From: an archaeon
GTDB taxonomy: Archaea > Iainarchaeota > Iainarchaeia > Iainarchaeales > Iainarchaeaceae
DNA: 26,144 bases
Direction: 5' to 3'
NCBI GenBank assembly: GCA_035289485.1
Contig: DATDXA010000013.1
Span: 1-26,144 of the forward strand
Shown here one piece after another: positions 5,832 through 17,419 of this stretch. A program made the translations under genes and the position numbers. Under the pieces are notes generated by a model. The model was given only the letters and a program-made list of their open reading frames with translations. It was not told the origin of the DNA and ran no database searches. Each line of letters begins with the position of its first letter. The first letter of the stretch is position 1.

Positions 5832-6968
5832 ATGAAGAACATAGTTACCAAAGCCATAAAGCTGGCAAAAGAGGAGGCCGCAAGGCCCAAGGGCTCAGCG
5901 CAGCCTTCTGGCAAGAGAAAAATCGGCCAGAACGACGAGGAGCTTGCAACACTGCTTGAAGCAAGCAAGGCAAAGATTAGGGTTGTTGGATGCGGCGGAG
6001 GCGGCTGCAATACAATAAACCGGATGACAGAAGTTGGAATACTCGGGGCAGAAACCGTTGCAATCAACACGGACGCCCAGGACCTTTTGAAGGTCAAGGC
6101 AGACAAAAAACTGCTTATAGGAAAAAAACTCACAAGAGGGCTTGGAGCGGGTTCGGACCCATCAGTTGGAGAGGCTTCAGCGCAGGAATCCATGGACGAT
6201 TTATCAGAGCTTATCGGCGACTCCGATTTGGTTTTCATCACCTGCGGAATGGGCGGCGGAACCGGAACCGGTTCGGCCCCGATTGTTGCCGAAATAGTCA
6301 AGCAAAAGAAGGCGCTAACAATTGGCGTTGTCACTTTGCCCTTCAGCGTTGAGGGAAAGAAAAGGATAGAGAATGCAATGCACGGGCTTGCAAACCTACG
6401 CAAGAACGCAGACACTGTAATAGTGATTCCAAATGACAAAATTTTGGAAATCGCTCCCGACCTGCCGATAAATGCGGCATTCAAGGTCGCGGACGAAGTT
6501 CTCACAAACGCAGTTAAAGGAATTACTGAAATGATAACAAAGCCAGGGCTAATCAATCTTGACTTTGCAGACCTTCGCACAATACTTGAAAGAGGCGGCG
6601 CTGCAATGATAGGGCTTGGCGAGAGCACATCGCAGGGCGCGAATTCGGATTCAAGGGCGCTTGAGGCTGTTGAGAACGCGCTCACATCGCCGCTTCTCGA
6701 TGTAGATATCTCGAATGCGGGAAGGGCCCTCATAAATGTCACGGGCGGCTCTGATATGACGCTGCGTGAAGCCGAGATGATTGTCGAAGCTGTCGCTGCA
6801 AAAATTAGTTCGAATGCGCACATCATATGGGGCGCCATGATTGATGACTCCGTGCCTAAAAATCAGATTCAGGCAATGGTTGTCATCGCGGGCGGAAGGT
6901 TCCCATACCTTGATGATGACGGCAAGCCAACAGGGCCAATAGATCTTGGAATACAGTTCGCGGACTGA
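5832..6968 (+). CDS. ftsZ: Cell division protein FtsZ (FtsZ1-type gene context)
   Basis: VVGCGGGGCN, AINTD, tubulin signature GGGTGTG, INLDFAD; followed by secE-spt5-rpl11. Confidence 0.98.
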   Translation: MKNIVTKAIKLAKEEAARPKGSAQPSGKRKIGQNDEELATLLEASKAKIRVVGCGGGGCNTINRMTEVGILGAETVAINTDAQDLLKVKADKKLLIGKKLTRGLGAGSDPSVGEASAQESMDDLSELIGDSDLVFITCGMGGGTGTGSAPIVAEIVKQKKALTIGVVTLPFSVEGKKRIENAMHGLANLRKNADTVIVIPNDKILEIAPDLPINAAFKVADEVLTNAVKGITEMITKPGLINLDFADLRTILERGGAAMIGLGESTSQGANSDSRALEAVENALTSPLLDVDISNAGRALINVTGGSDMTLREAEMIVEAVAAKISSNAHIIWGAMIDDSVPKNQIQAMVVIAGGRFPYLDDDGKPTGPIDLGIQFAD

Positions 6969-7000
6969 ATTCCACTTTGAGTATTATTGCAACGAAAGAG

Positions 7001-7037
7001 GGGGGGGTGCTAGCCGCATCCCTTTATATGTTTTTTT
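7001..7037 (+). terminator. Hairpin plus T-run after ftsZ (overlaps the probable secE TATA box)
   Basis: GGGGTGC-TAGCC-GCATCCC followed by TTTATATG and T7. Confidence 0.4.
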
Positions 7038-7055
7038 CTATTCATAGGTCTTGTT

Positions 7056-7235
7056 ATGTTCGGTTTCGACTGGGGAGAATTTGTGCAGTCAAGCACGAGA
7101 ATATTCAATGTCTCACGAAAGCCAAACTGGACAGAATACAAGGTAATTGCGAAAGTCACGGGCATTGGAATAATTCTAATCGGCGTAATAGGGTTTACTG
7201 TGAAGCTTTTGATGGAAGGGTTCCTGAGGCTTTAG
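7056..7235 (+). CDS. secE: Protein translocase subunit SecE / Sec61 gamma
   Basis: 59 aa, below the ORF-track cutoff. Manual translation: MFGFDWGEFVQSSTRIFNVSRKPNWTEYKVIAKVTGIGIILIGVIGFTVKLLMEGFLRL; RKP..EY...AKVTG.G..LIG.IGF motif; canonical position between ftsZ and spt5. Confidence 0.95.
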   Translation: MFGFDWGEFVQSSTRIFNVSRKPNWTEYKVIAKVTGIGIILIGVIGFTVKLLMEGFLRL

Positions 7236-7328
7236 TTACCTTTTTAAAACATTTTCAATTGAGTTTAATCAGATTTGACTCATTCTAGGCGTCAATTCTC
7301 ATAATAATGCATTTTTGAGTGATTTAAG

Positions 7329-7769
7329 ATGATTTTTACGGTAAGAACTACTGTTGGGCAGGAAAGCCTAGTTGTCGACATACTTTCAAGCAAGATTAGA
7401 AAGGAGGAACTGAACATCTACTCGATTTCAGTGATTCCTGGCCTTAAGGGCTATATCCTGATTGAAGGAGACAACGAGGTTACAATCCGCAGAGGCCTTG
7501 CAAACACATCCCATGTAAAGGGAAGGGGAATTGTGGGCGGAGAAGTGAAAGTTGAGGAGCTCTCAGGGCTACTTGAAGCAAAGCCTCTTATGAAGAGCAT
7601 AAAAGAGGGCATGAAAGTTGAAATTATTGCAGGTCCTTTCAAGGGAGAGAGGGCAAAAGTTATGAGAGTAAATGACACCAAAGAAGAGGTTACAGTTGAG
7701 CTGCAGGAAGCGGCAGTCAAGATTCCAGTTACCCTGTCTGCAGAGCAGATAAGGATTGTAAACGAATAG
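7329..7769 (+). CDS. spt5: Transcription elongation factor Spt5 (NusG homolog)
   Basis: VRTTVGQE, LKGYILIE (NGN domain); KOW motif VEIIAGPFKGERAKV. Confidence 0.97.
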   Translation: MIFTVRTTVGQESLVVDILSSKIRKEELNIYSISVIPGLKGYILIEGDNEVTIRRGLANTSHVKGRGIVGGEVKVEELSGLLEAKPLMKSIKEGMKVEIIAGPFKGERAKVMRVNDTKEEVTVELQEAAVKIPVTLSAEQIRIVNE

Positions 7770-7780
7770 GTGGTTTGAAA

Positions 7781-8272
7781 ATGGCAGAAATCAGCGCACT
7801 TGTGGAAGGCGGAAAGGCAACAGCCGGAGCGCCGCTTGGGCCGGCACTTGGGCCACTTGGAGTGAACATAGGCAAAATAGTTGCCGAAATAAACGAGAAG
7901 ACTAAGGCATACGCCGGGATGAAGGTTCCTGTTACAATTGAAGTTGACAAATCCAAAAACATCAATATTACCGTGGGTTCGCCCCCAATGAGCGCTCTTA
8001 TTGTAAAGGAAATAAAGGCCGCAAAGGGCGGCGCAAACCAGAAAACCGACACAGTGGGAAATCTCACAATGGAGCAGGTAAAAAAGCTCGCGGAAATGAA
8101 GCTTGAATCTCTTGCATCAACTAACCTCTACTCCGCAGCGCGCGAAGTTGTGGGCACATGCAATTCAATGGCAGTTACAGTTGAAGGCAAGCGCGGAAAG
8201 GAGATGCAAAAAGAAATAGAGGAAGGCAAATGGGATTCTTTTTTCGGCACGGAGAAGAAGGCAAAGAAATAA
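7781..8272 (+). CDS. rpl11: 50S ribosomal protein L11 (uL11)
   Basis: VEGGKATAGAPLGPALGPLGVN, GMKVPV, GTCNSMAVTVEG; SD AGGTGG before ATG 7781. Confidence 0.97.
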   Translation: MAEISALVEGGKATAGAPLGPALGPLGVNIGKIVAEINEKTKAYAGMKVPVTIEVDKSKNINITVGSPPMSALIVKEIKAAKGGANQKTDTVGNLTMEQVKKLAEMKLESLASTNLYSAAREVVGTCNSMAVTVEGKRGKEMQKEIEEGKWDSFFGTEKKAKK

Positions 8273-8399
8273 ATCACGCTTTTTTCTAATCTTTTCTAGG
8301 GTAATCAAATCTGTCTTTTTCAGTAAACTCGCTTAATTTTCCTTTATAGACTCCAAAATAGCTTTTCTTGCGCTTCTTTTTCTCCATTCAAACTTGCCT

Positions 8400-8795
8400 T
8401 CATCCTATGTAAACTGTATTTTCACCTTTCATGTGGAAATCCTTGGTTACTAATTTGGCATTGCTTCTGCGTGAAACGGAAATTACTATTGCGTCAGCAA
8501 GGCTCGCATTTTTGAATTTTTTCCGAAGCTCGGCATGTATCCTTACCGCTTCAAAATATGTTTCACTGTCTTCATCAACCGGCGCTGAAAATGATTCAAT
8601 TATTTCCCTTGCCTGTTCAGGGTTGCCGCCACTTCTTATCGTTTTGCTGCAAATTTCTGCCATTACAATTCTTGGCGTGATTATTATGTTTCCCTCGCCT
8701 TCAAGTATCTGTGCGGCTTTTTTGCCTCCGGGAAGATTCTCGAGGTATTCAATCCATGCGCTGGAATCTATCACAAATCTAGAGCCTGCTCTCAA
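8400..8795 (-). CDS. vapC: PIN-domain toxin (VapC family)
   Basis: FVIDSSAWIEY, VMAEI, SLADAIV, LVTKDFH acidic PIN residues; TTG 8795 chosen as start because GGAGG precedes it. Confidence 0.9.
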   Translation of the reverse strand: MRAGSRFVIDSSAWIEYLENLPGGKKAAQILEGEGNIIITPRIVMAEICSKTIRSGGNPEQAREIIESFSAPVDEDSETYFEAVRIHAELRKKFKNASLADAIVISVSRRSNAKLVTKDFHMKGENTVYIG

Positions 8796-8979
8796 GCCTA
8801 TCTTCCTCCGTAAATTCCCCAATCTGGCCTTTCATTGCGCCCAAATAGCTTTTTTTCGGCTTCTTCAAATCCAGCTGTATCTCCTCATCTTCCCGAATAT
8901 TTAGCTGCTTTACAGCATCGCTTGGTATTCTTGCCATAAGCGAACCCCCGATTTTTTTCACCTTCACAACAACTATCAT
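8779..8979 (-). CDS. AbrB/MazE/SpoVT-family antitoxin
   Basis: KVKKIGGSLMARIPSDAVKQLNIREDEEI; overlaps the vapC start. Confidence 0.9.
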   Translation of the reverse strand: MIVVVKVKKIGGSLMARIPSDAVKQLNIREDEEIQLDLKKPKKSYLGAMKGQIGEFTEEDRLESRL

Positions 8980-9109
8980 TAAACCACCTGTTATACAAAT
9001 TAAACACGATGTTATATTTAATGGTTGTGCGGGGCTAAATTAATATTTGTTATGTCGAAGTTCATTAGATAGTTTAATATATCTTAGATGGCATATTAAA
9101 ATTGATAAA

Positions 9110-9673
9110 ATGGGCGAGTTTCAAAAAGGTTTATCCTTACTAAAAAATGTATATGCTTTTTTTGCTTTTTTTCTAATTCTTGTACTACTTGCGCAGTCAT
9201 TAGGGCTTTATCAACCATCTGCTTATGTGGAAACTTTTTATATTAACGCCATCTTTTTTGCAATTTTGCCGATGCTTGTTGCGTGTGCAATAGGCTACAA
9301 GACACGGTTTTCCATTCTCGTTATAACCGCTATTGCAGAGGTTCTTGTATTAGTAACGCTGTTATGGAATTTTTTTGGCAATAATTCATTCTTGGCATTC
9401 TCTAGTCTATTGAATATATTACTGACCATATTTTTGTTGTCCGGCACCTTGCTTTGCCTGTGGTATTTTAAGCAACTTAAAAAATTCACGGATACCAACA
9501 TAGCTAATACTAAAAAAATGGATGAAGTGGAAACTAAATTAAAAATAGGGGTAATTGTAGTTCTTCTTCCGGTGGTTATTTTTATTTTAGCCACCATAAT
9601 TGGAATACCCGTAAGCCAGGAGATAAACTCTTTAGTTTCTGGCATCCTTAGCGTTATCGGCGTATTGCCATAA
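9110..9673 (+). CDS. AT-rich membrane protein of unknown function
   Basis: About 5 hydrophobic segments; visibly more AT-rich than its neighbours; ATG 9110 lies about 30 nt after TTTAATATA. Confidence 0.7.
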   Translation: MGEFQKGLSLLKNVYAFFAFFLILVLLAQSLGLYQPSAYVETFYINAIFFAILPMLVACAIGYKTRFSILVITAIAEVLVLVTLLWNFFGNNSFLAFSSLLNILLTIFLLSGTLLCLWYFKQLKKFTDTNIANTKKMDEVETKLKIGVIVVLLPVVIFILATIIGIPVSQEINSLVSGILSVIGVLP

Positions 9674-9699
9674 GTCTTGCATTTGCCCTTGTCCAAGCA

Positions 9700-9801
9700 C
9701 CTTTTAAAAACCTTCTCAAGTGAGAATAGTTAGATTAAAGCCCTAATTTTAGGGCCGCGGCTTTCAGGAATTTTTCCTTAAAGCACCACCAACTAGTTGG
9801 T
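9700..9801 (+). promoter_or_regulatory. rpl1 promoter (TATA-like) and structured 5' leader
   Basis: CCTTTTAAAAACCTTCTCAA at 9700-9719; stems GCCCTA-ATTT-TAGGGC (9740-9755), GCTTTCAGG...CCTTAAAGC (9760-9784) and palindrome ACCAACTAGTTGGT (9788-9801). Confidence 0.5.
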
Positions 9802-9812
9802 AGGTCATCAAA

Positions 9813-10529
9813 ATGGACAGAACTGATATACAGCAGGCGCTAAAGTACGCCCGGGAACTTAGCAAGAAACGCAAGTTCGAGCAATCCGTTGAGTTCACAA
9901 TGAACTTCAAGGGAATCGACTTCAAAAAGGCAGAGAACAGAATCGAAGTCGATGTAAAGCTCCCGCACGCCACAGGAAAAAAGGCGGATATTAGAACACT
10001 TGTTTTTGTAACTGACTCAAACTTTGCCGAGGAAATAAAGAACAAGGTAAATAGGGTCATAATGGAAAATGAAATCGCGGGCCTCAAAAAGAAGGACGCG
10101 GACATTCTCATGAGAGATTATGATGTTTTCCTTGCCCAGGGGCCTTCAATTCTTGCTGTTGCAAAGCAGCTAGGGCAGCAGCTCGCGCCAAAGGGCAGAA
10201 TGCCAAGGCCGATTACTCCTTCTGTTTCAGCACTTGAACAGTCCCTTAAAAGCGTTAGCACTTACACAAAGGTTTCAAACAAGAAAGGAAAGTTCATGCC
10301 GGTAATTCATTTCCTTGCAGGAAAGGAAACTGCCAAGGATGATGCGATTGTTGAAAACATAATGGAAGTTTACAGCTCGGTTCTGAATGTTCTCCCGACA
10401 AGGGAAGGAAATGTCAAGTCGCTTTATGTGAAGCTTACAATGGGGCGCCCAATAAAGGTCGGTGAGAAGCTTGATGCTTCACACTCACAGTGGCACGCAC
10501 AAAAGCCTGACGCGAAGGTGAAACAATGA
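9813..10529 (+). CDS. rpl1: 50S ribosomal protein L1 (uL1)
   Basis: KRKFEQSVE, LPHATGK, LGQQLAPKGRMP, YVKLTMG. Confidence 0.97.
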   Translation: MDRTDIQQALKYARELSKKRKFEQSVEFTMNFKGIDFKKAENRIEVDVKLPHATGKKADIRTLVFVTDSNFAEEIKNKVNRVIMENEIAGLKKKDADILMRDYDVFLAQGPSILAVAKQLGQQLAPKGRMPRPITPSVSALEQSLKSVSTYTKVSNKKGKFMPVIHFLAGKETAKDDAIVENIMEVYSSVLNVLPTREGNVKSLYVKLTMGRPIKVGEKLDASHSQWHAQKPDAKVKQ

Positions 10530-11371
10530 CTTCGCACACACGAAAGTGGAAAGAATCGCAGCTCTCAGAGCTTAAAGAACTTGTTTCAAAGTACAATGTG
10601 ATTGCGGTAGCGGACATTAGGCTCTTTCCTGCTTCGCTTTTCATGCAGATAAGAAAGAAGCTGCACGGAAAAGCCGTGATTAAGGTTTCAAAAACCAAGG
10701 TCCTTAGAATGGCCCTCAAAGGCCACAACCACGCAGCGCAGCTCACTGATTTTGCGCAGGACAATTGCGCAGTGATATTTACAAACATGAACCCGTTCGA
10801 ACTCTTCGGGTTTCTCAAAAAGAACAAGGGAAAAGTCGCGGCAAAAGTGGGCGCAATTGCAGATGATGATATAATTATCCCTGCAGGAGATACAGGCCTC
10901 CCGCCAGGCCCGGCCCTAAGCGATTTGAAAGGCGCAGGCCTAAAGGTTGCAGTGCAGGGCGCAACTATTGCCATAATGGAAGATAAGGTCGTCACAAAGA
11001 AGGGCGAAGCGGTTTCCGCCCCGGTTGCAGGCACTCTTTCAAAACTGAATGTGATGCCATTCAAGGTCGGAATGAAACTTATCGCCGCAATTGAAGGCAG
11101 CCAGCTTTTCAGGGCGGAAATACTTGATATTGACACCGAGAAAATATTCGCCAATTTCATGGCGGCGCACAGGGGCGCATTCAACGTTGCTGTGCACGCG
11201 GGTGTCACAAACAAAGCGACAATCGAGCACCTTGTCTCAAAGGCTTTCAGCAACTCAAAAGCTGTTGCGCTTGAAGGAAATGTGCTCAATTCCGTGACCG
11301 CTGGCGATATACTCGCAAAAGCGGAGAGGGCGGCTAAGGAAATAAAGTCAAAGATAAAGGAGGACGCTTAG
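10526..11371 (+). CDS. rpl10: 50S ribosomal protein L10 / acidic P0 (uL10), lacking the C-terminal acidic tail
   Basis: [29 protein letters not shown] overlap with rpl1. Confidence 0.96.
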
Positions 11372-11400
11372 TTTTTTTCTACTTAAGCGAGGTGAAACAC

Positions 11401-11700
11401 ATGGAGTATGTATACGCAGCAATGCTCTTGCATTCGGCAAAGAAGGAAATAAACGAGGCCCACGTCAAGAAGGTTCTCGAAGCCACCGGCATAACAGTCG
11501 ATGATTCAAGAATCAAGGCACTCGTTGCTTCACTCAAGGACATAAACATTGACGAAGCAATCCAGAAGGCGGCAGTTGCGGCACCAGTTGCAGTCGCAGC
11601 GGCACCGGCAGCAGCAGAAGCCAAGAAGGAAACAAAGGAAGTTGACAACAAGAAGAGCGAGGAAGAAGCGGCAGCAGGACTTGGAAGCCTGTTCGGCTAA
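11401..11700 (+). CDS. rpl12: 50S ribosomal protein L12 / aP1
   Basis: [11 protein letters not shown], Ala-rich hinge, C-terminal [22 protein letters not shown]. Confidence 0.98.
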
Positions 11701-11801: not shown

Positions 11802-14324
11802 TTAGCTGCTTTTTCGAGTTTTTGATTTCTTTTCATTCCTCAGCGCCGCTTTTGCGATGTCCCGGATTCCAGCGCCGCCCCTTTTCTTTTTGCCGCGAGT
11901 TGCAGCCCGGGGTTTCTGCACCGGCTTTTTCGTTTTTTGCGCCTTTGACTCTTGTTTTGCAATCACAGCAGGGAGCATCGCCTTTGCGCTTTTACCTTCA
12001 AACGCTTCCACATCAATTTTTGAAATCTCCTCAATCTCTGAATGAAGCGCATCCTTCATTTCCTGAACATTCGCAAGGTACTCTTTCGATTTTTTCGCGA
12101 ATTCATTGTCAGTTATTGCCCCTTCCTTAAGATGCCTTTTGAGATCGCGCATCTTCTCCTTGTATGTGGAAATCTCAGATGAGAAATTGTCCATCGCAAG
12201 GATATGCATCGCCTTTTTCTCCCTTTCAAGCTCCAAAAATGAGAGTTCCTGCGTGTACTTCTCCATAAGATTTGCATGGGCGCTGCCATCTATGCGGCCT
12301 TTCTTGAACTGCTCCTCTGTTTGCCTCAATTTGTTCTTTGCCGCGGCAATTTCTTTTAGTATGGATAATTTTCTGTGCCTGTTTGAGTGCACAATTCCAA
12401 GAAGCATTATTGCAAGCACAAGTATCAGCGCAATTAGAAGCAGCAAAATTGCGATTGAAGTGAAATTATTAGGCCCCTGTACTACAATGCTTGTTGCGCC
12501 CTTTCCGTTATCGTTATTTCCATTCTGCTTCGGAACCTGCGCAAGGCCCGCATAAACCGAATTCACTTCCTCTGCGGCGTTGAATAGATTTTCCGAGAAA
12601 AGCGCAAGGCTATAGCCGCTCTTTAGGTTATCTGCAGCTCCCACAGAACTGTTCTGGTCAGAATAGTAATCCGCGGCCTCTAGGTAATATTTTGCGTGGT
12701 CTAAATAGAGCTCTGCCCAGCCCGTGTGCACTTTCGAATCCGCCATGAGCTTTTCGACTTGGGTGATTTTGTCACGGAGCATATTCCTTAGCTGCTCTTC
12801 TGTTTTGCCCTCTATTTCTTTTTCAGAATCAAGCATTGCCCGGGCAGATGCCGCATCAAAATAAGACGCCTCAAACCATCCTGCAATCTTTTCGGATTTG
12901 GCGGCATCAATTCTGCGCCTTATGTCCTCAACAAGTCCGCGGTCCGTGATTGCGTTTATGTCCTTTTCCGCGCTTGCAATCATTGCATCCATTGCATTTG
13001 CAAAATCATTCGGCCTTTTCACATAAACTTCCTGCTGCCTTGAAATTTCATAGAAGTCCTTTGATATTCCAAGCCATTCAGCTGCAAATGCATAGTCCTG
13101 CATGCGCTCAAATGCCACCTGCATTTTTTCATCCTCTGTGCCGTCTACTACTATTGTGCGCTGGGTAGAGAGCCTCTCTACTGCGAGTTTTGCATAGGTG
13201 TAGCGCTGCTGTGCTGATGCGAGCCATTCAATCCCCTTTTTTGTTGGGTTTTCATCAAGGTCATTTCTGAAATTATCAAGCTCTTTTTTCAGCTCGAAAA
13301 CCTTCAAATCAAGTGCCGTTGAATCCTCCTCAATCAGATTTGGATTTGTGGAAACTTCCTTTACAACAGTTGCATCAACCCTTGCAAGGAATGCGAAATT
13401 TGCGGCGGAGTAGAGGTAGTTTTGCTCATTTAGGATTTCCGCCTTGTCAATTGTCCCTTCGGCGCTGTTTAGCACTTCAAGCAGCGAGTGCGTAATCGCT
13501 GGGTCTTCTAGTAGAGTTGAGGAAAGAGCGTTTCTTGCTTCCCCAGTTGCCTGCTTTGTCTCATTTATATAATTTGTAATCACTGCCTTGAATGTGCTAA
13601 GTTCAGGTTCAATCTGGATTTTTTGCGGCACAAAATCCGGGACTCCGTCAGGTCCTTGTGATGCAGCGGCATTGATGTCTTCAATCCTTGAATTCGCAAG
13701 CTTTAATGCCTCATCAATTGTTCCCGCCTCGGCGACCTTGAGTCCCCACGTCTTCGGAGCGTAATCAATAAGGTTCACGCTTTTGACGCCTTCAGGAAGC
13801 TTAACGGTTTGCACAGCCTCCCCTTTCGGAATCAAAAAAAGTTTTGTTCCGGTTTTGCTCGCTTCGCGTGCCTTTTCAAACACTCCGCCAACTGGCCCGA
13901 CGCTTCCATCCTCTCTGATTGTTCCAGTTATGCTCACATAATCAGGAACTGGTCTCTCAAGCAGCATTGAAACTGTAAGAAGCGTCATTGCCGCTCCCGC
14001 GCTAGGCCCATCAACTACGGATGCGGAGGAGTCAATTGTGTATTTGTAATCATGCAGCCCTGTGTTCGGATAAAATTTCTTTGCAACCTTTACTGCGTTC
14101 CTCTCAGCGTTCTGTGTCGAGGTGCCAACAAGTGGCGTTACTGCGCTCCAAATTGTTCCATTTCCCGGTTCGATTTCCAGGTGCAAAGTTGCAACAAGCC
14201 CTTCTCCATCAGTTGTCACTGCATAAATTTTCATTGCTCCGTTCTCGGTTACTGCAAAGGCGAATGCTGAAAACAGCAAAATCAGGGTAAAAATTAATGG
14301 AAAAAGGAGTTTTTTAGAGGTCAT
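11802..14324 (-). CDS. Exported, membrane-anchored Lon-like (S16-type) Ser-Lys protease with a cytoplasmic extension
   Basis: Signal peptide MTSKKLLFPLIFTLILLFSAFAFA; VDGPS108AG, ITGTI...G.VGPVGGVFEK151 (Ser-Lys 43 residues apart, as in Lon); no AAA motifs; single TM at about aa 625-648; Lys-rich tail. Confidence 0.88.
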   Translation of the reverse strand: MTSKKLLFPLIFTLILLFSAFAFAVTENGAMKIYAVTTDGEGLVATLHLEIEPGNGTIWSAVTPLVGTSTQNAERNAVKVAKKFYPNTGLHDYKYTIDSSASVVDGPSAGAAMTLLTVSMLLERPVPDYVSITGTIREDGSVGPVGGVFEKAREASKTGTKLFLIPKGEAVQTVKLPEGVKSVNLIDYAPKTWGLKVAEAGTIDEALKLANSRIEDINAAASQGPDGVPDFVPQKIQIEPELSTFKAVITNYINETKQATGEARNALSSTLLEDPAITHSLLEVLNSAEGTIDKAEILNEQNYLYSAANFAFLARVDATVVKEVSTNPNLIEEDSTALDLKVFELKKELDNFRNDLDENPTKKGIEWLASAQQRYTYAKLAVERLSTQRTIVVDGTEDEKMQVAFERMQDYAFAAEWLGISKDFYEISRQQEVYVKRPNDFANAMDAMIASAEKDINAITDRGLVEDIRRRIDAAKSEKIAGWFEASYFDAASARAMLDSEKEIEGKTEEQLRNMLRDKITQVEKLMADSKVHTGWAELYLDHAKYYLEAADYYSDQNSSVGAADNLKSGYSLALFSENLFNAAEEVNSVYAGLAQVPKQNGNNDNGKGATSIVVQGPNNFTSIAILLLLIALILVLAIMLLGIVHSNRHRKLSILKEIAAAKNKLRQTEEQFKKGRIDGSAHANLMEKYTQELSFLELEREKKAMHILAMDNFSSEISTYKEKMRDLKRHLKEGAITDNEFAKKSKEYLANVQEMKDALHSEIEEISKIDVEAFEGKSAKAMLPAVIAKQESKAQKTKKPVQKPRAATRGKKKRGGAGIRDIAKAALRNEKKSKTRKSS

Positions 14325-14395: not shown

Positions 14396-17300
14396 TTAAT
14401 CGGCTGGCTGCTCTTGTGCCTCTTGCGGCTCTTCCTGCCCCTGCGCAGCAGGCGCCTCATATGGCCCTTTTTTGAGCCGCAGGCCAATTACCGAACTCTT
14501 CTGCTTATTGAGCGCAACCCCGATTATCTGGTCGGCCTGATTGATCACCGCATCATTGTGGCTAATTGCAATGAATTGGCTTGCCATGCTCTGCTCTTTT
14601 ACCATGTTCCCAACCTTCACGGAGTTATCCTTGTCAAGCGCGGCATCAACTTCGTCGAAAATGTAAAATGGCGCGGGCTCGAATGACTGTATTGCAAAGA
14701 GGAATGCAAGCGCTGTGAGGCTCTTTTCCCCGCCGCTCATCGCGTCAATGCTTTTGAGAGTGTCCTCTTTGTACTTTGCCTGTATCAGCAATCCGCCCTC
14801 AAGCGGGTTTAGCTTGTCGCTCAAATCCAGAAGCCCAACTCCCCCGAAGAACTTGAAATAGAGCTCGGAAAATTTCTTCGCCACGTGGTTAAAGCATTCC
14901 ATGAACACGTTGAATTTCTTCACCTCGATTTTCTGTATCATTTCAACAACCGCAAGCCTTTCCTCATCAAGCTTGTTTGCCTTCTGCCTCACATCATCCA
15001 CTTCTTTTTTGAAAGCGTCAAAATTCTCAAGCGATTTCATATTGATTGCGCCGAGCTTTTCAATTTCCTTTTCGATTTCAGGCAGGCGCTTTTTGAGTTC
15101 ATTGAGGTTCGCCTCCTTGAAAGGCTCTATTGCGGAGTAATCCCTGAATTCTTCCTGCAAATCCTGCAAGCGCACCTCGTTTTTCGACATTTCAATGTTG
15201 AGTTCGTTCATTTCCTTCTCGCGCGACTCGATTTTGCGCGTGAGTTCCTCCCTTTTCTGCGAAATAGTGTCGATTTTTGCAGTGAGCCTGTTCTTCTCCT
15301 CTTCAAGCAGCCTGTTTGCGCGGTTCGCCTTCTCAAGCTCCGTTTCCATTTCAGCGAGCTTCTTTTGCGTGTGCTCTTTTTCCGTTTCCATTTCAGAAAT
15401 TTCCTTTTGAAGCGGAGATATTTCCTTCTCCGCTGCGCTCGTTTCGGAAGCTATGGCGCCTATGCGCGCGCTCAGGACTTTCTCTATTTCCATAGAAAGC
15501 CTTGTTGCTGTATTTTCCTTCTCGTTTTTCTCGCTATTTAGATGGTGCAGCCTTGAGAGCAGGGTATTCATTTCCGAGCCGCTTTCGCTGCCCTTTTGCT
15601 CCTTTAATTTCTCATGCGCAAGCGCCTTTTCCTTTTCAAGGCCTGCAATTGTTTTCTCAAGCTGCTTTCCTTCCCCTGCGCCCAAATTTTTCTCGGCGGA
15701 TATTTTTTCAGAATATTTTGCGATTTGCCCATCAAGCCGCGTGAGCTCTTCTTTAATCCCGTGAAATTCCCCAAGCGCCGCCGTGAGCTGCGAGAGTTCC
15801 CTGTCCTCTCGCGTGAGCTTTTCTTTTTCTTCTCCAATTCTTGCAATATCCTCCTGTATCTGCTTCATTCTCGCCTTTGCCGAGTTTATTTCAAAAACCC
15901 TCTTCCCCCTGATTTTTTCCTTTCTTTCCGCTTCAATGGGCTTTTCGCACACGGGGCACTCGGATTTTGTTTTGGAAATCGTTTCAAGTGATTCCTCAAT
16001 TCCGTGCACCCTTCCTCCAAGCTCGTGGAGTTCTGAGTGCATTTTCTGGAATTCCTCGTTTTTGGCCGCAAGTTTTGAAATCACTCCTTTTTTTTCAAGC
16101 ACGGAGATTTTCTTCTCAAGCTCTTCTTTCTCAAGGAGCCTTGCGTGGGCTTTTTTTCTCGCCCCATCAAGTTCATTTACTGCCTGCTGCGCAATCCGCG
16201 CTTCCCTTTCAGCGCCGTGCCTTTCAAGTTCAATATTGTGGAGCTTATCCTTTAGCGAAGAAATGTCATTTACTATTTCCGAAAGCCTGAGCTCTGCGCC
16301 CCTTATCTGCGCCGCATTCTTGTCAAAGCCAGGGCTTTTGGAATCAATTGATTTTCTCACGCTCAGAAGCTGCTCATCTGCCTTTTCAAGCTCTTTTTTT
16401 GCAAGCGAGAGCTGCTCTTCCTTTTCCGAAATTGACTTCTTGGTCTCTTTGAGTTCCTCTTTGAGGTCCGCTACCCTTTGCTTTCTTGCATGCAGCGCCT
16501 CTGATTTTGAGTTAATCCTTTCCGCAACAAGGTTTATGTGCCCGCGCTTTTGCTCAACTTCCTTTCCAAGCGAGGAATAGGTTTTTTCGCTGGCATCTAT
16601 CAGCTGCTTTGTTGCCTCATCGACCTTGCGCTCAAGCTCGCGCTCCTCATCCTGGAGCTTGTCCCTATCAGATCTTTTATCGCCGATTTCTTTTTGCATC
16701 CTCTCAAGCTTCTGCTTTCCTTCCTCAGAATCGCGAGTAATAATCTTGATTTCCTCGGCAAGAATTGTGGCCTTTGAGCGCTTTGTCTCTTCCTGCAGCG
16801 AGTTGTAGCGCAGCGCATTTTCACGGTCCTTTTCAAGCTGCTGCAAATACGCTTCGCGCTCATTAAGTATGAGGTGCGCATCCTTTACTTTCTGCTCAAC
16901 CTTCTCAAGTTTTTTCATTGCCTCGTCCTTTTTCTCCTCAAATTCCTGCAATCCGGCGGCCTCTTCAATAATTTGCCTGCGCTGCTTTGCATTCATTTCA
17001 ATTACGCGCGTGATGTCACCCTGCACAACTATGTTGTGGCCGTTTGGGTTGATTCCAAGCTCTAGCAGCAGCGATTGGATTTCATTGAGCGTTTTTCTTT
17101 TCCCATCAAGCTTGTATACCGATTTTCCGCTCCGGTCAACCATTCTTGTGATGTTGATTTCCTTTCCCGCCTTGTCTTTTATCACAAGCTCCACTTTCGC
17201 ATACCCTTCAGTGGCATCATGGTTTACAAGCTCTGTGAGCTTGGAAGCCCTCAAAAGCCGCAGTGAAGTTATTCCCATCGCAAAAAGCAGCGCATCAAGG

Positions 17301-17419
17301 ATGTTGCTCTTCCCGCTGGCATTCGCCCCCGCGATTGCGGTGAACCCGGGGGCGAAGGGAATGTCCGCCTTGCGAAACGACTTGAAGTTCTTTAGCTTTA
17401 TGCTTACAATAGTTGTCAA
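14396..17419 (-). CDS. smc: Smc-family ATPase with a zinc hook in place of the hinge
   Basis: NFKSF, Walker A GANASGKSN, LRASKLTELV loop, Q-loop VVQGDI, signature MSGGEKS, PAPFYIFDEVDAALD, ISHN; long coiled coils; central C488PVC491; TTG start. Confidence 0.92.
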   Translation of the reverse strand: MTTIVSIKLKNFKSFRKADIPFAPGFTAIAGANASGKSNILDALLFAMGITSLRLLRASKLTELVNHDATEGYAKVELVIKDKAGKEINITRMVDRSGKSVYKLDGKRKTLNEIQSLLLELGINPNGHNIVVQGDITRVIEMNAKQRRQIIEEAAGLQEFEEKKDEAMKKLEKVEQKVKDAHLILNEREAYLQQLEKDRENALRYNSLQEETKRSKATILAEEIKIITRDSEEGKQKLERMQKEIGDKRSDRDKLQDEERELERKVDEATKQLIDASEKTYSSLGKEVEQKRGHINLVAERINSKSEALHARKQRVADLKEELKETKKSISEKEEQLSLAKKELEKADEQLLSVRKSIDSKSPGFDKNAAQIRGAELRLSEIVNDISSLKDKLHNIELERHGAEREARIAQQAVNELDGARKKAHARLLEKEELEKKISVLEKKGVISKLAAKNEEFQKMHSELHELGGRVHGIEESLETISKTKSECPVCEKPIEAERKEKIRGKRVFEINSAKARMKQIQEDIARIGEEKEKLTREDRELSQLTAALGEFHGIKEELTRLDGQIAKYSEKISAEKNLGAGEGKQLEKTIAGLEKEKALAHEKLKEQKGSESGSEMNTLLSRLHHLNSEKNEKENTATRLSMEIEKVLSARIGAIASETSAAEKEISPLQKEISEMETEKEHTQKKLAEMETELEKANRANRLLEEEKNRLTAKIDTISQKREELTRKIESREKEMNELNIEMSKNEVRLQDLQEEFRDYSAIEPFKEANLNELKKRLPEIEKEIEKLGAINMKSLENFDAFKKEVDDVRQKANKLDEERLAVVEMIQKIEVKKFNVFMECFNHVAKKFSELYFKFFGGVGLLDLSDKLNPLEGGLLIQAKYKEDTLKSIDAMSGGEKSLTALAFLFAIQSFEPAPFYIFDEVDAALDKDNSVKVGNMVKEQSMASQFIAISHNDAVINQADQIIGVALNKQKSSVIGLRLKKGPYEAPAAQGQEEPQEAQEQPAD

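Follow-up and report, generated by a model that had tools for sequence, protein, structure and literature searches.

A natural archaeal Smc in which a Rad50-type zinc hook very probably replaces the hinge

Introduction

The hinge is treated as a defining feature of SMC proteins, and it has been proposed to serve as a DNA-binding site and as an entry gate. The smc gene of an archaeon of the order Iainarchaeales raises the question of whether a natural Smc can carry the zinc hook of Rad50 in place of the hinge. The gene lies on contig DATDXA010000013.1 of assembly GCA_035289485.1, and the window analyzed here is the whole stretch of 26,144 nucleotides (nt). The window is contig 13 of a 1.16-Mb assembly of 64 contigs that is 90% complete. 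A sequence-only reading of the window had proposed a natural chimera of Smc heads and a Rad50 hook. That proposal is supported by the lack of a hinge, Smc-type heads, a conserved CPxC motif, a Rad50-like apex, and an intact assembly. A natural Smc with its hinge replaced by a Rad50-type CPxC hook is very likely the correct description of the architecture. It is also likely, with a little less confidence, that this single Smc serves as the ATPase core of a Smc-ScpA-ScpB complex whose apex is joined by the Rad50-type hook.

Results

The smc Gene and Its Product

The smc open reading frame (ORF) occupies positions 14396..17419 on the minus strand, starts with TTG, and encodes a product of 1007 amino acids (aa), here called the window Smc. 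Its features are listed below, with helices and strands taken from AlphaFold2 (AF2) models.

14396..17419, minus strand: smc gene, with the stop codon at 14396-14398, a TIGR02169 score of 555.9 bits, and an SMC_N match over residues 4-974
16910..17419, minus strand: N-terminal half of the ATPase head, about residues 1-170, aligned to 5xei (residues 4-241), with AF2 strands and helices at 3-155
nt 17306-17329, minus strand: Walker A, GANASGKS, inside the N-terminal head half
nt 17225-17254, minus strand: R-loop, LRASKLTELV, residues 56-65
nt 17012-17029, minus strand: Q-loop, VVQGDI, residues 131-136
15971..16909, minus strand: N-terminal (ascending) coiled-coil arm, about residues 171-483, with AF2 helices 158-360, 368-443, and 446-483
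15932..15970, minus strand: apex loop with the putative CPVC hook, residues 484-496, lying between helices in both AF2 models
nt 15947-15958, minus strand: CPVC (C488, P489, and C491), residues 488-491
15761..16144, minus strand: apex segment resembling the Rad50 zinc hook, residues 426-553, the source segment for profile A3
15050..15931, minus strand: C-terminal (descending) coiled-coil arm, about residues 497-790, with AF2 helices 497-550, 555-577, 581-608, and 615-761
14465..15049, minus strand: C-terminal half of the ATPase head, about residues 791-985, aligned to 5xei (residues 730-986)
within nt 14690-14737, minus strand: signature, SGGEKS, in the C-terminal head half
within nt 14633-14677, minus strand: Walker B, FYIFDEVD, in the C-terminal head half
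nt 14552-14566, minus strand: H-loop, ISHND, in the C-terminal head half
14399..14464, minus strand: acidic tail rich in Gln, Glu, and Pro, residues 986-1007, not conserved and with variable alignment ends

The sequence-only reading had placed the hook cysteines at C488 and C491 (nt 15947-15958), and this position is exact in the 1007-aa translation. Each motif that it quoted occurs exactly once, namely LRASKLTELV, VVQGDI, SGGEKSLTALAFLFAI (residues 895-910), PAPFYIFDEVDAALD (residues 915-929), and KSECPVCEKPIEAERKEKI (residues 485-503). The window Smc has three cysteines only, at positions 488, 491, and 842. The C-terminal tail is modeled as disordered, with AF2 pLDDT below 50 at residues 984-1007. 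Walker A reads GANASGKS in the window's genus and family, GSNGSGKS in most hook-bearing relatives, and GPNGSGKS in hinged Smc.

Heads and Arms of the Smc Type

The heads had been assigned to Smc rather than to Rad50, and profile and structure databases agree. The window Smc has a complete split SMC-type ABC ATPase head, in which Walker A, Q-loop, signature, Walker B, and H-loop each occur once. The best NCBIfam model is TIGR02169 (archaeal Smc, SMC_prok_A) with 555.9 bits (E 1.8e-166); other scores are 428.8 bits for TIGR02168, 136.1 for ASRP, 119.3 for the best Rad50 model, and 44.7 for RecN. The TIGR02169 match consists of two stretches, the second of which aligns residues 510-982 to profile positions 694-1165. 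Pfam SMC_N also matches (E 1.6e-47). The top sequence match in PDB is the Pyrococcus Smc head 5xei (2.3e-96), whereas Rad50 heads match at about 1e-11. Walker B of the window Smc is FDEVDAALD; it is LDEPTHNLD in the Rad50 of the same genome.

A different assignment would make the protein not an Smc ortholog but a repair or compaction paralog, similar to Rad50/SbcC or to the ASRP family (ClsN and Sph). Its apex hook is as in Rad50 and ASRP, and NCBI sources name relatives only "AAA family ATPase." However, Rad50 models give at most 119 bits against their cut-offs of 700-1087, and ASRP model NF045487 gives 136.1 bits against 300, compared to 556 bits for TIGR02169. Walker B contains FDEVD and not the DEPT of the genome's own Rad50. 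The genome encodes its own Rad50 and an Mre11 candidate besides, and the conserved ScpA and ScpB would have no Smc partner other than this protein. The head tree described below places the protein inside archaeal Smc and not with Rad50, and the own Rad50 stands in it on a branch of 8.86 changes per column. A Rad50-like or ASRP-like paralog is therefore very improbable.

Absence of a Hinge

The hinge, which the sequence-only reading could not find, was not detected by profile searches or in the structure model either. Pfam found no SMC_hinge (PF06470) in the window Smc. A local hidden Markov model (HMM) built from 32 hinge-bearing Smc rows had no match in the window Smc or in any of its 120 best homologs. 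In the AF2 monomer (95-row alignment, mean pLDDT 79.6), unbroken helices at 158-483 and 497-761 are joined solely by the 13-residue loop 484-496, and no globular middle domain is seen. When hook forms (hinge-less Smc with CPxC) are aligned with hinged Smc of sister orders, a single clean gap of about 165-180 residues falls precisely at the hinge.

Conservation and Rad50 Likeness of the CPxC Apex

Homologs were collected by a word-indexed search that scored 8000 candidates; 2835 proteins passed at E≤0.001, and the best 120 of these were examined. Exactly one CxxC, always CP[VTILF]C, occurs in 110 of these 120, near residue 488 in intein-free forms. Precomputed domains among the 120 include PF06470 in none and PF04423 in four. 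Where the sources name the relatives, the names are "AAA family ATPase" or "chromosome segregation protein" (Diapherotrites or ainarchaeum records). In alignment A1, made of 95 rows selected by length (975-1045 aa) and by the presence of CPxC, the residues C488, P489, and C491 do not vary. Because the rows were picked for CPxC, the presence of the motif in A1 is by construction, but its in-register alignment is not. Profile A3 contains 16 apex segments from different families, taken as DNA references and 15-31% identical to that of the window; its only invariant columns are C, P, and C.

Profile A3 matches the Pyrococcus furiosus Rad50 zinc hook in PDB (1l8d_A) with E 2.6e-14 and 56.6 bits over 101 positions, and 6zff_A with 1.1e-13. 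The next matches are a GCN4/tropomyosin coiled coil (E 0.012) and human RAD50 5gox (E 0.038). In a collection of 5.8 billion proteins, searched for longer proteins, A3 matched at least 20, candidates being crowded out before hook-bearing Smc of other phyla could be reached; five of the 20 are of the same Smc family (P0252, P0001, P0139, P0126, and P0032). Nine of the other 15 were tested, and all nine score best on Rad50 models. Pfam was run on 48 of the 95 A1 rows: Rad50_zn_hook matched 28 of the 48 at E≤0.01 (best 4.9e-6), and SMC_hinge was not among the families listed (25 of 27). The apex folded alone is a helical hairpin (AF2, pLDDT 91.1). A Foldseek search of this model against 350,542 PDB chains placed 1l8d_A and 1l8d_B at ranks 1 and 2 (TM 0.78 on target, root-mean-square deviation 3.2 Å, E 0.02); these ranks are only suggestive of a Rad50 hook. 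A prediction with two copies of residues 400-580 and Zn scored 0.04, which gives no verdict and is counted neither for nor against.

A hook of the same function may also be convergent rather than descended from rad50, if two cysteines evolved at the hairpin tip that was left once the hinge had been deleted. The motif is short and coiled-coil flanks inflate profile scores. No donor was identified, and hhalign of A3 against the genome's own Rad50 aligned the CPVC regions (probability 92.3) over 51 columns only. On the other side, the P. furiosus hook matches over about 100 residues, and other coiled coils do no better than 0.012. Beyond the cysteines, the Smc apex and the Rad50 hook share K-x-CP-x-C-[DE/G]-x-x-L followed by basic residues, and a hook-bearing Rad50 is present in 55/55 sampled genomes of the order. 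We consider convergence rather unlikely; as judged from sequence, a Rad50 gene is the most likely source of the hook.

Sequence Integrity

An assembly or binning artifact could in principle have joined two half-genes at the apex, as the assembly is of the metagenome type and has 64 contigs. However, single contigs from three of four other public runs (X2, X3, and X4) span the CPVC codons at nt 15947-15958 without differences or joints. Contigs of the remaining run (X5) end at 15911/15913, short of these codons. The identical architecture recurs in one-contig genomes (G014 and G001) and in more than 100 independent clusters. The bridging contigs exclude a chimeric assembly at the apex, and an artifact is hardly credible. 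Both the assembly chimera and the Rad50/ASRP paralog are contradicted, by scores, tree, and bridging contigs.

Genome Content and Partner Proteins

In the window's genome, SMC_N exceeds its cut-off only in the window smc and in a 683-aa Rad50 ORF, and the window smc is the only Smc-type gene found. A six-frame search at E≤1 of the 90% complete genome found no SMC_hinge and no second, hinge-bearing smc. ScpB is present and exceeds its Pfam and NCBIfam cut-offs (119.8 bits; TIGR00281 99.5 against a cut-off of 89.2). ScpA is represented by its N-terminal part, cut by the end of a contig, with 30.7 bits, which is above the cut-off. Nothing in the genome exceeds the NF045487 cut-off of 300 bits for ASRP.

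A separate rad50-mre11 locus, which the sequence-only reading had raised, is present as genes but not as a locus. The 683-aa Rad50 is on contig 5 (L028:5299-7350) and carries both a CPVC hook and the LDEPTHNLD Walker B; Rad50 models match it best, at 216 bits, which is below their cut-offs. The Mre11 candidate (406 aa) is on contig 62 (L144:913-2133), unlinked to rad50; only Mre11 models are among its best family matches, each scoring under its cut-off. The own Rad50 is short, since in many of the order's other families Rad50 has 780-815 aa.

Across the order, ScpB was found in 117/121 genomes (≥85% complete) and ScpA in 55/55 genomes (≥90% complete). ScpB was not found in either of the two genomes of family f22 (G101 and G103). 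Archaeal Smc complexes lacking ScpB have reportedly been described in one study. Rad50-like ORFs of about 680-815 aa occur in 55/55 genomes at E≤1e-10, with the limit that the only match of one genome (5.8e-11) may be its Smc.

Distribution and Phylogeny

The survey covered 201 sampled genomes of the phylum, including that of the window: 182 of the window's order and 19 of other orders of the same class. SMC_hinge was found in 19/201, comprising 17/19 sister-order genomes and 2/182 in the window's order. The sister-order hinge ORFs have 1009-1182 aa, plus one of 1787 aa. Within the window's order, G151 has a genuine hinge-bearing relative. In G193 the hinge is on a contig of 1633 nt, in an ORF about 25-28% identical to any Smc compared, and another contig of the same genome has a P0001-like ORF. 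A P0001-like Smc is present in 188/201 genomes at E≤1e-20. Among the best 150 of the 50% representatives, proteins are of the hook or CxxC-less type down to about E 1e-127, and nearly all below that are hinge-bearing; the 130 new ids among them divide into 96 with a hinge, 17 with a hook, and 17 with neither or fragmentary. Judged from these sequences, the form is lineage-wide across the window's order.

The head tree was built from 72 rows and 595 columns of heads and head-proximal arms only (P0001 residues 1-300 and 690-985), using IQ-TREE with LG+C20 PMSF, a quick search, and SH-aLRT. Four intein-bearing rows (L026, L041, L051, and L054) and two broken rows (L076 and L086) were left out, and the genome's own Rad50 was the outgroup. 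A single clade (SH-aLRT 99) unites all Smc of the class with hinged Micrarchaeota Smc and one Methanothrix row. SH-aLRT is 85 for the class node and 90 for that of the window's order. The basal branches of the order (a hinged f25 row, an f19 hook row, f5 rows, and f22 rows) are unresolved; the remainder is a 34-row core (SH-aLRT 96) of hook and CxxC-less forms. In this tree the hook family nests inside a DPANN Smc clade that otherwise consists of hinged members. The tree is compatible with a single replacement of hinge by hook near the base of the order, but does not prove it.

Arm Length

Arm length was measured between two regular-expression anchors, at the end of the N-terminal head and at the start of the C-terminal head, in 108 proteins with both anchors and CPxC between them. 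The N anchor is 333-335 residues from the Cys in 96/108, and the Cys is 301-302 residues from the C anchor in 100/108. Total distance is 632-639 residues in 103/108 hook forms, with two outliers at 440-450 and two at 618. The distal arms are just 22-36% identical between families, and their length is nonetheless constant. In hinged relatives, the distance is 739-817 residues with the hinge included. As modeled, the window Smc has long antiparallel arms of canonical length.

Some hook forms are short-armed. They keep CPxC and lack about 91-104 residues per arm relative to the main class.

L052, 1177-3576: short-armed hook form, 800 aa
L053, 2090-4582: short-armed hook form, 831 aa, with a mid-region of 210 residues compared to 389-393
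P0075: short-armed hook form, 804 aa; likewise P0129, P0137, and P0139

Relatives without the Hook and Evidence against a Replacement

Several observations weigh against a single Smc with a Rad50-type hook in place of the hinge. The TIGR02169 score of 555.9 bits is below the curated equivalog cut-off of 729.4; the shortfall fits the missing hinge part of the profile, as the second stretch of the match starts again at position 694. Rad50_zn_hook scores 17.4 bits in the window Smc (residues 474-506), below its gathering threshold of 24.3, and 20 of the 48 relatives scanned have no hook match at E≤0.01. Coiled-coil composition supplies part of the A3 score against 1L8D. No Foldseek match of the apex model reached E≤0.001, and helical hairpins are generic. 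The nodes of the class and of the order have moderate support (SH-aLRT 85 and 90 from a quick search, no bootstraps). A second smc could lie in the missing part of the genome, which is 90% complete.

Relatives that lack both hinge and hook weigh more directly on the cysteines. Hinge and CxxC are both missing from ten of the 120 best homologs, one of which is intein-bearing. Their rows are scattered among hook forms, with at least six hook/none changes in the 34-row core, and at least nine changes among hinge, hook, and none occur over 71 rows of the head tree. Monophyly of the 10 CxxC-less core rows was rejected by the approximately unbiased (AU) test (p-AU 0.00018, log-likelihood difference 151.5), which used a reduced 44-row set, LG+G4, and a group named after the tree had been seen. 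As CxxC-less forms are nested among hook forms, the Cys pair is dispensable in some lineages, and it may not be the sole dimer link. Whole families (f4, f24, and f27) are CxxC-less and hinge-less, with proteins of about 900-960 aa and anchor-to-anchor distances of 507-575 residues.

CxxC-less relatives: P0035, P0043, P0048-50, P0053, P0056, P0072, and P0116; L031:2338-5133, L032:2274-5057, L033, and L055

P0028 (hook) and P0048 (none) are 58-60% identical in heads and proximal arms, and nothing between is alignable. In an all-against-all BLAST, CxxC-less mid-regions score 34-42 bits with each other and similarly against hook forms. Their scatter on the tree may go back to the hook being lost repeatedly or to distal-arm modules being exchanged, such as one module spread by recombination.

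These relatives make it possible to read the protein as a true Smc in which CPxC is a turn-stabilizing or redox motif on a monomeric hairpin, with the chains held together by arms, heads, and ScpA. Apart from the repeated changes and the rejected monophyly, CxxC-less genomes keep ScpA and ScpB (f4 8/8 in both searches), and a hinge-less SMC without CXXC is known from marine Actinobacteria (PMC12153180). However, the Cys pair is invariant where the surrounding apex has diverged to 15-31% identity, and the apex is specifically like a Rad50 hook over about 100 residues. In Rad50, the same motif is an intermolecular Zn site (PDB 1L8D, "Rad50 coiled-coil Zn hook"), and a tetrahedral Zn site needs more cysteines than the two that one chain supplies. 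A mere turn motif is unlikely, more so than convergence, and a dimerizing hook is the preferred interpretation.

A broader possibility is that Smc of this order of tiny DPANN archaea runs from hinge to Rad50-derived hook to no recognizable dimerization module, with the hook lost independently several times and with ScpA, ScpB, and quantized arm lengths kept. Arm lengths fall into a full-length class, a class about 95 residues shorter per arm, and a class about 30-40 shorter. This series is tentative, and we would sooner doubt than accept it as a whole.

Other Variants and Genomic Neighborhood

Family f5 has a 1084-aa Smc without CxxC (L036:717-3968, minus strand; L037:974-4225, minus strand; P0187). 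A hinge was not found in f5 forms by Pfam at E≤0.1, by the local hinge HMM at E≤10, or by BLASTP against a hinged relative. An Atlas feature search of f5 residues 430-680 returned SMC_hinge clusters (0.94, 26/30 matches), which is a lead rather than a finding; the middle of f5 may be a strongly diverged hinge. Family f22 (G101 and G103; L038 and L039) has a very divergent Smc of 938-1013 aa without hinge or CxxC.

Some relatives of about 1510-1790 aa carry an intein or a LAGLIDADG homing endonuclease (PF14528 and PF14890) in the Smc head, right after the GK of Walker A. In L041, for example, GANASGKC is followed by the insert.

Intein-bearing relatives: P0004, P0010, P0033, P0034, P0040, P0044, and P0046; L041, L051, L054, and L026

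In the window, smc adjoins a conserved housekeeping row at 5832-11700 on the plus strand, with ftsZ, a small ORF, Spt5/NusG, L11, two unassigned ORFs, L1, L10, and acidic P1/L12. The ORF directly downstream of smc (11802-14324, minus strand, 840 aa) has a Lon C-terminal proteolytic domain at residues 72-182 (1.8e-13); its remaining 650 or so residues have no Pfam family match.

Discussion

Proposed Mode of Action

Dimerization through a zinc hook is probable, at a confidence just short of that for the complex as a whole. Two hooks would share one Zn2+ through their four cysteines and join two Smc chains at the arm tips, so that the apex is constitutively dimeric. At the heads, ScpA would act as the bridge that closes the ring, and ScpB would bind ScpA. 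The product would be the usual closed Smc-kleisin ring or rod, loading on and translocating along DNA. ATP-driven head engagement would act through the rigid arms, and the mode of action would resemble that of the engineered Bacillus subtilis Smc(Zh) chimera. Zn binding and dimerization are proposed on the basis of solved Rad50 hooks and of that chimera, and we infer Zn binding, apex dimerization, and DNA loading or loop extrusion by analogy.

Significance

Until now, dispensability of the hinge has been shown only by the engineered B. subtilis chimera (PMC5344682). A whole archaeal order with a hook on its only Smc-ScpAB indicates that the swap is evolutionarily stable. It also makes native hook Smc proteins available for biochemistry and single-molecule work. 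Conserved arm length together with distinct shorter classes provides an independent natural test of the "tuned arms" idea, and the CxxC-less relatives pose the question of whether any apex dimerization module is needed. If the series from hinge to hook to bare tip were true, a dedicated apex dimerization domain would not be needed for Smc-ScpAB, and the arm rather than the hinge would be the constrained mechanical element. Models of loop extrusion and of DNA loading could then be tested on ready-made natural Smc complexes with a hinge, a hook, or a bare tip.

A natural hook-bearing Smc was not found described in the open full-text literature searched, where only engineered chimeras were found; a printed description may still exist elsewhere. 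DPANN Smc have been counted as "canonical aSMC" (PMC8665677), and the available part of that article does not remark on the hinge. Hook Smc proteins have sub-cut-off Smc scores and "AAA family ATPase" names, and surveys seeded with hinge alignments (methods of PMC5344682) would therefore miss them. New here are the order-level map of hinge and hook, the profile evidence for a Rad50-type apex, the quantization of arm length, the short-armed forms, and the repeated CxxC-less forms.

Comparison with Known Systems

Archaeal Smc-ScpAB (TIGR02169; Pyrococcus heads 5xei and 4i99) is like the window system in heads and motifs, full-length antiparallel arms, ScpA and ScpB, single copy, and tree position. 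The window Smc differs from it in having a CPxC loop instead of a hinge, and it is about 130-200 aa shorter than hinged relatives (1122-1232 aa).

The Rad50/SbcC hook (PF04423; 1L8D and 6ZFF) shares CPxC at the tip of an antiparallel coiled coil and a profile likeness of about 100 residues. Unlike Rad50/SbcC, the window Smc has heads without a DEPT Walker B, has no linkage to Mre11, and has arms roughly double the length of those in the 683-aa Rad50 of the same genome.

The ASRP family (ClsN/coalescin and Sph1/2; NF045487) is hook-bearing and is a separate, non-Smc family (Yoshinaga et al., 2022, PMC9389158). The window Smc resembles the ASRPs in being archaeal, in belonging to the SMC superfamily, and in carrying a zinc hook motif where a hinge would be expected. 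ASRPs are not Smc orthologs, whereas the window Smc scores 556 bits on the Smc model and only 136 on NF045487, with its cut-off of 300.

In marine Actinobacteria, a bacterial SMC is hinge-less and without CXXC (Sussfeld et al., 2025, PMC12153180). It is likewise a natural SMC-family protein without a hinge, and its resemblance is closer to the CxxC-less relatives than to the window Smc.

The same architecture as in the window Smc, with Smc heads and arms and a Rad50-type hook, was engineered in B. subtilis Smc(Zh), in which the zinc hook of P. furiosus Rad50 took the place of the hinge (Burmann et al., 2017, PMC5344682). The reverse swap also works, as an engineered chimera of Rad50 and the MukB hinge did in fission yeast Rad50 (PMC6969161). 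Function of Smc(Zh) is still dependent on arm length in a bimodal pattern (PMC5344682), which parallels the tight arm length and the second, shorter length class of the natural family; the short-armed natural hook Smc recall the engineered Mini-Smc(Zh). Unlike Smc(Zh), the window Smc is natural, archaeal, and lineage-wide, is known here from its sequence, and has junctions that evolved.

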